Sequence record: PP400784
Source of the DNA: Escherichia phage FL38
Length of the DNA: 64,000 nt
Reading direction: 5' to 3' (one strand)
The number at the start of each line of letters is the position of its first letter. Position 1 is the first letter of the stretch. Of this stretch, positions 22,407-25,068 are shown one piece after another. The position numbers and the translations under genes were made by a program. Under the pieces are notes generated by a model that was not told the DNA's origin, ran no database searches, and saw only the letters and a program-made list of their open reading frames with translations.

Positions 22407-23075
22407 TTATCCCCTTTGTTTCTTAACTGAATTTGGATCTGGATTTTCTGGTAGGTCTTCCAGACCCATAGCATAACGTTGTGCATAGATTAGCATAAGA
22501 ATATCGCGAGCGCAATCATGAATTGCATCATGTGCGATAAAACCATCTAGCGTACCCATTGGTAACGGACACTCACACATCCCGCGATGCATCAATGTAC
22601 GCTCAATGGCGGTGCGAACATCTCGGATATTCCAGAATCGCACAGGTTCAAGGCTGAACGTCTCTCGTGTATTGTGTGCACGTCGAATCATATCAACTAG
22701 TAATGGAATATCAAACGCATTACCGCGTGACCACATTACGGATTTAACCGGATCTACCCCTACGGATTCACAGAATGCGTTAAAACGCGCTAAACCTTCT
22801 TTAGTTGATACTTCCGTACCATTTGTGATTAATTGCTTTCTCATGCCTTCTGAGGCGGTATTCTTCCACCATTCAACCACACCATGATCAAACACCCTTA
22901 CACCTTTCTGGGAAGGAATATCAAATTTTACCAGAAAGGAATTGTCAACCAGTTCTTTAAATGTAGGTGGATTGTGCGGATCTTCTTTAAATCCGATTGC
23001 CGCCATATTGATAACCGCCCCATCAGGCGGATAACCTAAACTTTCAAAGTCAATCATTAAATCCACTGGAAGCAT
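22407..23075 (-). CDS. dexA: exonuclease A (DexA), DEDDh-type 3'-5' exonuclease
   Basis: Start set to ATG 23075 (GGAGGA upstream); N-terminal IDFESLG exonuclease motif; size about 222 aa, close to T4 DexA; position between gp39 and dda. Confidence 0.75.
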   Translation of the reverse strand: MLPVDLMIDFESLGYPPDGAVINMAAIGFKEDPHNPPTFKELVDNSFLVKFDIPSQKGVRVFDHGVVEWWKNTASEGMRKQLITNGTEVSTKEGLARFNAFCESVGVDPVKSVMWSRGNAFDIPLLVDMIRRAHNTRETFSLEPVRFWNIRDVRTAIERTLMHRGMCECPLPMGTLDGFIAHDAIHDCARDILMLIYAQRYAMGLEDLPENPDPNSVKKQRG

Positions 23076-23076
23076 G

Positions 23077-23319
23077 TTAAATATCCTCCGCGATGTGCCG
23101 GAACAACTCCAGATCGTTTTTATCCAGAATGAAACCGCTACAATCAATAATCCCGTTACCGTAATTATCGGTTAACAGTCGTTCCGTTGCCATGTATGCG
23201 CGTACTTTGTTGTTAAAATTCATTACATGTTGTGCATAGTCACAATGAATCTTTTGACGGTTCCACGCGACAATTGATTGTAGATGTATTACATTAGCCA
23301 CATTATTAATAACAACCAT
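23077..23319 (-). CDS. hypothetical protein, 80 aa
   Basis: Start moved to ATG 23319; the upstream part of the track ORF belongs to the neighbouring small gene in another frame. Confidence 0.35.
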   Translation of the reverse strand: MVVINNVANVIHLQSIVAWNRQKIHCDYAQHVMNFNNKVRAYMATERLLTDNYGNGIIDCSGFILDKNDLELFRHIAEDI

Positions 23320-23320
23320 A

Positions 23321-23497
23321 TCAAAACCCTCGCTTAGTGGAATGTTCTGGCATTTTATTGATACATTCAGCTTGGTAGTCACGAGATTTTTTTGACGAAT
23401 TAAGAGCTACAGCCAAAAAATCCTGTAACTGTTCGTTTGTCATTTTTGGCTTACACCGCGTATCTAAACCCTTCGTTCTTCTAGCTTCATTAGCCAT
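23321..23497 (-). CDS. hypothetical small protein, 58 aa (not in track); paralog of 23499..23666
   Basis: ATG 23497 with GAGG upstream; ends AECINKMPEHSTKRGF; shares a roughly 52-bp near-identical module with the next gene. Confidence 0.3.
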   Translation of the reverse strand: MANEARRTKGLDTRCKPKMTNEQLQDFLAVALNSSKKSRDYQAECINKMPEHSTKRGF

Positions 23498-23498
23498 A

Positions 23499-23666
23499 TC
23501 AAAAACCTCGCTTAGTGAAATGCTCGATCATTTTATTGATACATGCAGCTTCACTATCGCCGGACACGTTCCAGCCGTATAGACCCCATCTAAAGCACAT
23601 GGTAACAGTTCCATTGTGACGGCTTACCGTCACATCATTAAATTCTGGGATACTTCGCATAATCAT
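23499..23666 (-). CDS. hypothetical small protein, 55 aa (not in track)
   Basis: ATG 23666 preceded by GAGGAAA overlapping the dda stop; ends AACINKMIEHFTKRGF. Confidence 0.3.
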   Translation of the reverse strand: MIMRSIPEFNDVTVSRHNGTVTMCFRWGLYGWNVSGDSEAACINKMIEHFTKRGF

Positions 23667-23676
23667 AATAATTTCC

Positions 23677-25068
23677 TCAAATATAGTCTACTCGATACCT
23701 CGCACGGGTAACACCCACATATAATAACTGCATTGCCAATTCAAAGTCAACATTGTCTGTACACATGCAAGGAGTATACAGGAACACGCGGTCTACGCTG
23801 ATCCCTTGTGACTTATGAATGGTGCAAGCTGGTAATGCTTTTACATTCAAGAACATACGCTTCATCGTCCAGAAGGAATCCCAATCTGGTTTAAATTTTG
23901 GATTCTCTTTCTTCATTTCGCGATATTGTCCGGCGACCGTATTCAGATAGATAGAGAAAATGTTCTTCTGACGTTGTTCTGTCAGAATGTTGATTTCTAC
24001 TAAATCTGGTTTATCTGTAGTGATTCCGACTGCATCTAAACCGACTTTCTGATTTAGGATTTCTTTGTCTTCGTCATCATCGACGCTTTCCACTTTCAGA
24101 GTATATCCTAAAACTGGTTGCGGATCTACCCCCGTGCAACGTAATGTAAATTCACGCGGGATGACCTCTTTAACTCGGATCATCTCACCATTGTTAAAAA
24201 TAACATTGGGAATCTTCTTCCCGCGTTCATCTCGCAGATATTCGATCAATGGTTCCTGAGTAACCAGAATTTCATCTACAATCACTGGTTCATCGGTGTT
24301 ATAAACGCGCTTACGTACAATTTCATTGAGTTTTTCGACGCTCTTGTTAGTGTAGGCCAGAATACGGTTTTCTAGAAGGTCTTCCGGCGTTTTAACGGTT
24401 TCGAAATAATGCTTCATAAACTCCGGCAGAGTTGAGCTATGGAATACACCCTCGTTACCGCACTGCTTTTCGAATACCCATTTACCATTACGGACAGCGG
24501 TCGCCACATCAATTATTGGAGCATTAGATCGTTTAATCTCTGTAAGTTCTACATTCTGAAACCTTTCATCGGTGAAGAAAGGAGAGATCGACGTTGCACC
24601 GCTCGGATCAACTGGTCGTAACTGGTTCAGATCACCCACGGCAATAATAACAATTCGACCGTTGATACTCTTCATGAGAATATCAAATAGTTTCTTATCG
24701 ACCATACTCGCTTCATCAACAATGATGATCTGAACATCATCTAGCTTAGGAGTATCTTTTTGCTCAAATACTTGAGTATCTTCATAGTTGGTCGGGTTTA
24801 GTCGCAGTAGTGCATGTAAAGTAAATGCTTGACGACCTACCGCTTTACTCAAAACTTTTTTAGCCTGGTGGGTAGGCGTTGCCAAAACCACACCAGTTAC
24901 CCCACGACGGACCATTTCCTGAACAATGAATTTCATCATTGCGGTTTTACCAGTACCCGCCGCACCACGGACAGTTGTATGCTTCTTTTGTTCAATACGT
25001 TTCATTAGAACATCAAAAGCATGTTTTTGCCCGTCTGTTAACATATCGAAAGTTAATACTCTGCTCAT
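23677..25068 (-). CDS. dda: Dda DNA helicase (SF1)
   Basis: Colinear match to remembered T4 Dda (GAAGTGKT, ATPTH.AKK.LSK, IIVDE.SM, LTE.KRSNAPIIDVAT.VRNGKW, ALPA.T.HK.QG.SVDR, LLYVGVTR.RY.V). Confidence 0.9.
   Translation of the reverse strand: MSRVLTFDMLTDGQKHAFDVLMKRIEQKKHTTVRGAAGTGKTAMMKFIVQEMVRRGVTGVVLATPTHQAKKVLSKAVGRQAFTLHALLRLNPTNYEDTQVFEQKDTPKLDDVQIIIVDEASMVDKKLFDILMKSINGRIVIIAVGDLNQLRPVDPSGATSISPFFTDERFQNVELTEIKRSNAPIIDVATAVRNGKWVFEKQCGNEGVFHSSTLPEFMKHYFETVKTPEDLLENRILAYTNKSVEKLNEIVRKRVYNTDEPVIVDEILVTQEPLIEYLRDERGKKIPNVIFNNGEMIRVKEVIPREFTLRCTGVDPQPVLGYTLKVESVDDDEDKEILNQKVGLDAVGITTDKPDLVEINILTEQRQKNIFSIYLNTVAGQYREMKKENPKFKPDWDSFWTMKRMFLNVKALPACTIHKSQGISVDRVFLYTPCMCTDNVDFELAMQLLYVGVTRARYRVDYI

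Follow-up and report, generated by a model that had tools for sequence, protein, structure and literature searches.

In T4-like phages, the majority of small early genes are ORFans whose origin is obscure. Here we describe ORF009.1, a gene of 58 amino acids (aa) located between the helicase gene dda and the exonuclease A gene dexA in a stretch of 64,000 nucleotides (nt) from Escherichia phage FL38 (PP400784). This whole stretch is called the window below, and coordinates refer to it unless another record is named. The origin of ORF009.1 can be read at nucleotide resolution, from the donor gene, the two joins and a 58-base-pair (bp) duplication to later loss, conversion and decay. In T4, dda and dexA belong to an early operon. 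The dda-dexA region of the window is that of a Krischvirus, an RB49-like T4-type coliphage. It matched Escherichia phage Delraymugoa at 100% identity and Phi1, GEC-3S, ECD7, RB49 and JSE at 97-99%, all of which are Krischvirus. All five genes from dda to dexA are on the minus strand, the three small ones being, in the direction of transcription, ORF010 (55 aa), ORF009.1 and ORF009 (80 aa).

The same three genes have been described at the same locus of Phi1, ORF009.1 under the name ORFan009.1 (Arbiol et al. 2010, Genome Biol Evol, PMC2839356). It was treated there as an ORFan, and the passages of that paper concerned with the locus mention neither the 58-bp repeat nor a chimeric structure nor a plasmid origin. 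While the gene had been annotated before, what appears to be new is its chimeric structure and plasmid origin, together with the generation of the repeat by insertion and the loss driven by this repeat. PeSL cassettes are a known shuffling element of RB49/Phi1-type phages, as set out in the relevant parts of two papers (PMC2839356, PMC4122927). The locus studied here resembles PeSL shuffling, as it is presented there, in that a small single open reading frame (ORF) is gained or lost between close phages via flanking short direct repeats. It differs in that the repeat consists of duplicated coding sequence and a translational-coupling junction, apparently made by the insertion, and is found at one locus only.

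Among the orphan antitoxin-type counter-defence genes of T4-like phages is Dmd, which acts against RnlA and LsoA. Others are AdfN, directed against DarTG1 (PMC11825919), and TifA, directed against ToxIN (PMC10853763). Like these, ORF009.1 is a small early gene that is related to an ORF in the antitoxin position on plasmids and is patchily distributed among close relatives. Unlike them, it is a truncated version of such an ORF fused to a resident phage helix, is often frameshifted and is known from sequence alone. The plasmid partner falls in the Pfam family YafO_toxin, and the plasmid pair has the antitoxin-then-toxin order of the type II system YafN-YafO of E. coli. However, the upstream ORF of the plasmid has only 50 aa and no YafN/Phd-type relative was detected for it in Pfam, NCBIfam or solved structures, and the toxin is a plasmid-borne protein of 172 aa that scores far below the NCBIfam YafO equivalog cut-off. 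To our knowledge, the YafO family has not been linked to phage defence.

Rearrangement at short identities is familiar in T4-type phages. Amplification of the tifA locus of T4 is microhomology-mediated, and Singer and Westlye reportedly described microhomology-mediated rII deletions in 1988. The events proposed here would be alike in that the joins lie at identities of 6-10 nt and short direct repeats then mediate precise deletion, and they would differ in that phage DNA was joined to plasmid DNA, giving a new in-frame chimeric gene. Capture, duplication and loss all belong to known kinds of process.

The direct repeat and the composition of ORF009.1

An earlier reading of this DNA, made from its letters and ORFs (the original prediction), had pointed to a repeated module of about 52 bp between dexA and dda. 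The module is present and is longer than claimed: the direct repeat measures 58 nt, with 51 of the 58 positions identical (88%) between R1 (23316-23373) and R2 (23494-23551), and a start-to-start distance of 178 nt. As had been stated, both copies encode the C-terminus of a small protein and are followed by the start of the next gene. Each holds the final 15-16 codons of an ORF on the minus strand, A[A/E]CINKM[I/P]EH[F/S]TKRGF, and then TGA-T-ATG. R2 comprises the native 3' end of ORF010, with the codons of its C-terminal helix, a GAGG Shine-Dalgarno sequence, TGA, T and ATGG. R1 comprises the duplicated 3' end of ORF010, which serves as the C-terminus of ORF009.1, plus the Shine-Dalgarno sequence and the start of ORF009, and is more variable among phages than R2. 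The coupling of three consecutive small genes was also confirmed, the ORFs of 80, 58 and 55 aa being intact in the window and translationally coupled at their TGA-T-ATG junctions. All three are annotated as coding sequences (CDSs) in the identical GenBank record and in Phi1.

A degenerate 38-nt motif of the repeat was found in only two places in the window, with 0 expected from 100 shuffles. None of the GenBank phage genomes had more than two copies, and both copies were confined to the dda-dexA locus. Scans of IMG/VR and metagenome contigs for extra or alternative cassettes between the copies gave none. A second match place in some records had raised the suspicion of a paralog elsewhere; these records had only two copies, both at the locus, and the second place can be explained by R2 cross-matching an R1 with which it shares an exact run of 29 nt.

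The three genes had further been proposed to form a small paralog array that arose by local duplication. The duplication itself stands, but it covers the 58-bp 3' end and junction only, and the middle gene is not a duplicated paralog. The unique part of ORF009.1 (U1; codons 2-41, 120 nt, 23374-23493, minus strand) was 31% identical to ORF010 in register, which was no better than at other offsets and is the random level, and it matches a plasmid gene. ORF010 together with the 10-nt spacer upstream of it is as long as the repeat period, 178 nt, and with C-terminal modules that are 88% identical it could be supposed that the whole 178-bp ORF010 unit was tandemly duplicated, its N-terminal part then drifting while the C-terminal module was kept. 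This is hardly conceivable, as identity drops sharply from 88% to the random 31% at the repeat boundary, and divergence to that level within the genus is implausible because even the most divergent ORF010 orthologs of the genus have 69% protein identity. Moreover, the unique 120 nt have an external source at 88-98% identity, and this plasmid homology already refutes a duplication of the whole unit.

Comparison of its parts indicates that ORF009.1 (23321-23497, minus strand; annotated in Phi1 and Delraymugoa) is a chimera, in which the start region was copied from ORF009, codons 1-43 come from the plasmid ORF and codons 44-58 were copied from the C-terminus of ORF010. The N-terminal 40 aa are unrelated to ORF010. 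Residues 38-58 matched phrog_16162, the ORF010 family (E=5.6e-6), through the helix motif only, and the protein is to that extent a partial, chimeric member of this family. The AlphaFold2 (AF2) model of ORF009.1 was weak (predicted local distance difference test, pLDDT, 65) and consisted of a disordered basic N-terminus and two helices, without the beta-sheet body of ORF010. A large protein search with ORF009.1 returned Krischvirus proteins only.

The same phages show indels of single ORFs between direct repeats, which the passages on PeSL shuffling give as its hallmark, and the 58-nt repeat might accordingly be seen as a functional DNA or RNA element for modular shuffling, either a PeSL-type cassette of promoter and terminator or a hairpin with a regulatory role. 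In comparison with shuffled sequences R2 folded somewhat better (z = -2.17), but R1 did not (z = +0.64), and the R2 hairpin was not shared by R1. Neither copy contained a promoter-like (sigma-70) or terminator-like site. With at most two copies per genome, none of them elsewhere, and with a sequence that codes for a conserved protein helix, such an element is very improbable. The hairpin formed by RNA of the R2 region (23478-23563, minus strand) is GUGAAGCUGCAUG...CGAGCAUUUCAC, somewhat more stable than shuffles (z ~ -2.2).

The plasmid gene and its capture

U1 gave no match in the rest of the window, nor in phages outside the dda-dexA locus. Its only matches came from the E. coli genome collection, in two plasmids of 3.1 kb (NZ_AP022094 and NZ_CP145632; 88%, E=3e-34), where it corresponds to a 50-aa CDS (WP_024046379.1, MANEVRRTKRLDTRRKPKMTNEQLLAFLAAGINASKNRDYQADITLEAHH). 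Over 117-120 nt, DNA identity to the plasmid was 88% for the window and about 96-98% for L033, a Krischvirus metagenome-assembled genome (MAG) of 170 kb that has three differences from the plasmid in the unique stretch. At the protein level ORF009.1 and the plasmid product were ~71-77% identical over residues 1-43, and the last 8 plasmid residues are replaced.

WP_024046379.1 is encoded 36 nt upstream of a 172-aa gene whose product, WP_024046380.1, scores 35 bits with PF13957 YafO_toxin (cut-off 25). The 50-aa ORF is listed on 777 contigs. In 15/15 contexts inspected, on small Rop/ColE1-type plasmids of E. coli and Enterobacter, it was located 36-39 nt upstream of a YafO-family toxin gene. The same pair is carried by a Serratia plasmid, in which the downstream gene is reduced to 93 aa beside a Tn3/TEM-1 element. 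As the order in the YafO family is antitoxin and then toxin, the 50-aa ORF occupies the antitoxin position. The plasmid toxin reached 16.9 bits with the 132-position YafO equivalog model of NCBIfam (cut-off 153), a PDB profile search with it gave nothing meaningful, and the PADLOC models matched neither the toxin nor the small ORF. In the phages ORF009.1 is an orphan: its neighbours are ORF010 and ORF009, and the vicinity contains no toxin gene. A weak tblastn match of the plasmid ORF in Gamaleyavirus AN24P2 (OZ035740.1 / OZ035810.1, 66184-66285; 47% over 34 aa, E=0.1) is probably due to chance.

The local alignment of plasmid and phage spans from AGG-TTTYGATATGG to CCAAGCTG(A), with 131/150 identical positions for the window and 133/138 for L033. 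At its ends are two exact shared runs of 7 nt each. GATATGG, the 5' microhomology, forms the last 7 nt of R2 (23494-23500) and at the empty site is the junction between the ORF010 stop and the ORF009 start. AAGCTGA, the 3' microhomology, forms the first 7 nt of R1 (23367-23373) and at the empty site is found 58 nt upstream, within ORF010. The ends of the plasmid homology coincide exactly with the boundaries of the 58-nt repeat, and the 58-bp duplication would therefore be a by-product of microhomology-mediated insertion. It is thus highly likely that ORF009.1 was created by horizontal capture of a plasmid gene and not by gene duplication.

We infer that the order of genes in ancestral RB49-like phages was dda-ORF010-ORF009-dexA, and that in a cell with a small ColE1-type plasmid ~124-134 nt of the plasmid gene entered the ORF010/ORF009 junction via two microhomology joins. 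These may have been template switches or illegitimate crossovers, the first at GATATGG in the stop/start junction and the second at AAGCTGA, 58 nt upstream in ORF010. A two-join insertion of this kind is the simplest reading, and one route to it would be a copy-choice excursion from phage to plasmid and back to phage, with re-entry 58 nt upstream of the exit, by which those 58 nt would be duplicated on either side of the insert. The duplication would have given the insert a ribosome-binding site and start copied from ORF009 as well as an in-frame C-terminus and stop copied from ORF010. At 117 nt in the plasmid-like allele and 120 nt in the window, the insert preserves the frame. The outcome would be an expressed-looking chimera of 57-58 aa in an early operon. 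The 58-bp copies have since served as substrates for recombination, giving precise 178-bp deletions of the gene as well as gene conversion, so that the gene is polymorphic for presence and absence within the genus. A tightly coupled stop/start junction can in this way make a promoterless foreign fragment translatable in one event.

Some points weigh against this account. The insertion is a reconstruction from present-day sequences, and microhomologies of 7 nt are short. The same product would be reached by multi-step routes, such as integration of a whole plasmid followed by unequal exchange between phage copies. The alleles of L033 and of a second MAG, L034, are nearly identical to the plasmid and could result from repeated capture or from later conversion by a plasmid, instead of from one event. 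Nucleotide diversity (pi) among carriers was 0.038 for U1 versus 0.034 for ORF009, and because these values are similar the capture is not demonstrably recent.

Homology by itself is silent on direction, and the plasmid might have taken the segment from a phage. This reverse transfer is most improbable, because the plasmid ORF is full length, always paired with the YafO-family gene, and present on plasmids of E. coli, Enterobacter and Serratia. Among plasmids it shows deep synonymous divergence (pS reaching 0.67 when the E. coli allele is compared with that of Serratia) and purifying selection, with a ratio of nonsynonymous to synonymous changes (pN/pS) of 0.12-0.45. The phage version, on the other hand, is chimeric and patchy, and among phages it was found at the dda-dexA locus only, in one subgroup; the outgroup phages (GoldenSnicker, L005, L006, L023 and L024) do not have it. 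The phage alleles adjoin the E. coli allele (pS 0.04-0.12) and are graded away from it, first L033, then 011D4 and the Makalu phages, and then the window. The evidence points to transfer from plasmid to phage.

Loss, decay and possible function of ORF009.1

ORF009.1 was present in 17/58 Krischvirus records, which represent 14 distinct genomes, and absent from 41/58. The non-carriers, RB49 and JSE among them, are without exactly one 178-bp period, and RB49 carries ORF010 and ORF009 only. Variation in copy number among relatives, which had been suggested as a check, was indeed observed, with one 178-bp period either present or absent and never more than two copies. Both presence and absence of the gene were found on each of two ORF010 haplotypes, and the flanks were mosaic. 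In phage PHB13 the body of ORF010 is joined to an R1-type copy with the same A5 frameshift as in R1 of 011D4, and PHB13 is demonstrably the direct product of an R2-by-R1 crossover that deleted ORF009.1. The ORF010 of PHB13 (L025, 786-941) has 51 aa and ends in ...AECINKNARTFH and not in ...CINKMIEHFTKRGF, which makes it a natural mutant of the C-terminal helix in a viable phage. In kaaroe the single copy resembles R2 at the 5' end and R1 at the 3' end. Some natural pairs of phages, kvi and RB49 as well as Delraymugoa or G37-3 and kaaroe, are distinguished by little else than the 178-bp unit. R1 of the Makalu phages differs by 1 nt from their own R2 and has R2-type codons; it has been converted to R2-type sequence by gene conversion.

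The original prediction had named frames disrupted in close relatives as a finding that would refute it. Such disruption was seen for ORF009.1, which was frameshifted in 6/14 distinct GenBank carriers and in both MAGs (L033 and L034), but not for the flanking genes, which were intact in all 19 genomes compared for intactness and pN/pS of the three small genes. The frameshifts, those of the two MAGs included, are at homopolymers; in the GenBank carriers the changes are T6 to T5 in pEJ01, A7 to A8 in ECD7, A7 to A6 in three Makalu phages and A4 to A5 in 011D4. The main hot-spot is the A7 run within ORF009.1 (23387-23393, minus strand; T7 on the plus strand), which is A6 in Makalu, A8 in ECD7 and A5 in L033 versus A6 in the plasmid. 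Truncated proteins that match the frameshifts recur on several independent contigs. The pN/pS within ORF009.1 was 0.56, compared to 0.22 for ORF010 and 0.18 for ORF009, and between plasmid and phage it was ~1 (0.8-2.6, on small counts). The gene is under weak constraint and evolves near-neutrally, and its protein is most likely a dispensable accessory product.

The plasmid-like allele of L034 (ENA ERZ28636463 scaffold_43, 2501-2653) has an extra 9-nt direct duplication, AGCGTTTAG, and a loss of 1 nt in the AAAA of R1, and its product has 50 aa. These changes suggest that slippage on a small scale is continuing in this segment, unless they stem from an error of assembly. Starting from a GTG at 23382, the +1 frame of ORF009.1 is open in the window and runs into ORF009 (23077-23382, minus strand; a 101-aa ORF), and a loss of one base in A7 would fuse ORF009.1 to ORF009. 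Transcriptional slippage or programmed frameshifting at A7 as a means of such a fusion was considered and rejected, as the frame runs into TGA in Phi1 and Makalu and is not conserved.

ORF009.1 may be a passenger with no function, decaying as a pseudogene in many genomes; the repeat would then be only an insertion scar, and nothing would be selected except possibly the translation start of ORF009. We consider the evidence on this reading evenly balanced. The frameshifts in carriers and MAGs, a pN/pS of ~1 since capture, the absence of the gene from 41 of the 58 records and the low-confidence AF2 model all fit a passenger. On the other side, the frame is intact in eight GenBank genomes, the gene persists across the diversity of the group, and pN/pS within phages is below 1 (0.1-0.8), although on very few changes. 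All frameshifts but one are at or after codon 36, so that the 36 plasmid-derived residues at the N-terminus are usually still encoded; the longest homopolymer is at this position, and the pattern may be merely mutational.

The functional reading that we prefer, with fairly low confidence, is that ORF009.1 acts, or once acted, as an early protein resembling an orphan antitoxin, of use solely on hosts with a YafO-type plasmid. That it still works as such, neutralising a plasmid YafO-family toxin during infection, is possible but on balance doubtful. The patchy distribution and frequent decay of the gene are as expected of a conditionally useful accessory gene. The case is weakened by the fact that the 50-aa plasmid ORF is taken as an antitoxin from its conserved gene order, and that searches with it in Pfam, NCBIfam, PADLOC and PDB profiles gave no relative and no antitoxin domain. 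The phage copy is also without the last 8 residues of the plasmid protein and in many cases carries a frameshift, and these features speak against its having an important function today. A literature search linking Krischvirus, ORF009.1 and YafO found no paper. If ORF009.1 did act as an antitoxin, the plasmid YafO-type module would be an abortive-infection defence against T4-like phages, and a type II toxin family would be added to the phage defences together with a natural phage antidote. The counter-defence gene would then have been made from the antitoxin of the defence system itself in a single microhomology step, documented to the nucleotide, with the insertion site providing its ribosome-binding site, start and C-terminus.

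Neighbouring genes and further observations

The genes on either side of ORF009.1 appear to be constrained. ORF010 (23499-23666, minus strand; a CDS also in Phi1, RB49 and Delraymugoa) is the resident small gene downstream of dda (23677-25068, minus strand), and the conserved ORF009 (23077-23319, minus strand; phrog_15021) is located upstream of dexA (22407-23075, minus strand). Both were intact in 19/19 genomes, at the pN/pS values given above. Searches of the three small proteins in Pfam, PHROGs, NCBIfam and PADLOC gave only family-specific PHROGs without an assigned function.

The AF2 model of ORF010 (pLDDT 85) has a three-stranded beta-sheet and a C-terminal helix at residues 39-51, and by this model the repeat encodes the C-terminal helix of ORF010. 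A structure search in PDB and BFVD gave no significant match beyond its own family. Conservation within the family is highest in the C-terminal motif A-x-C-I-N...T, and A40, C42, I43, N44 and T51 of the module are invariant in distant homologs, from which the module is judged to be native to ORF010. A large protein search with ORF010 gave few hits, and exhaustive HMMER searching gave two true distant homologs plus repetitive false positives. Distant homologs were found in Kagunavirus siphophages, and L023 and L024, phage contigs of greater divergence, have them on the downstream side of dda. In Raoultella phage RP180 (L007, 1474-1644) an unannotated ORF of 49-56 aa, depending on the start codon, encodes a distant homolog with ~35% identity. 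It is found after a gene annotated NinH near the end of the Kagunavirus genome and has the motif EF...WG.Y...GD..A.CIN in common with ORF010; the label 'NinH' on the BLAST match to RP180 came from an overlap of a mere 2 nt.

T4 had been thought to have no genes between dexA and dda; this was wrong, as it carries dexA.1 and dexA.2 there, and similarity of these two to the small ORFs of the window was undetectable. In the more distant relative L024 (Logan SRR8048113 contig, 1151-1370) dda is followed by a 51-aa ORF010 homolog that overlaps dexA at ATGA, and ORF009 is absent. The dda-dexA interval thus holds one, two or three small genes depending on the lineage.

A sigma-70-like site was found inside the 3' end of dda (23721-23750, minus strand), with TTGACT, an 18-nt spacer and TATTAT (10/12 matches), ~55 nt upstream of where ORF010 begins. 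Such sites were no more numerous in the region than in shuffles, and this one could be a candidate internal promoter of the mini-gene cluster.

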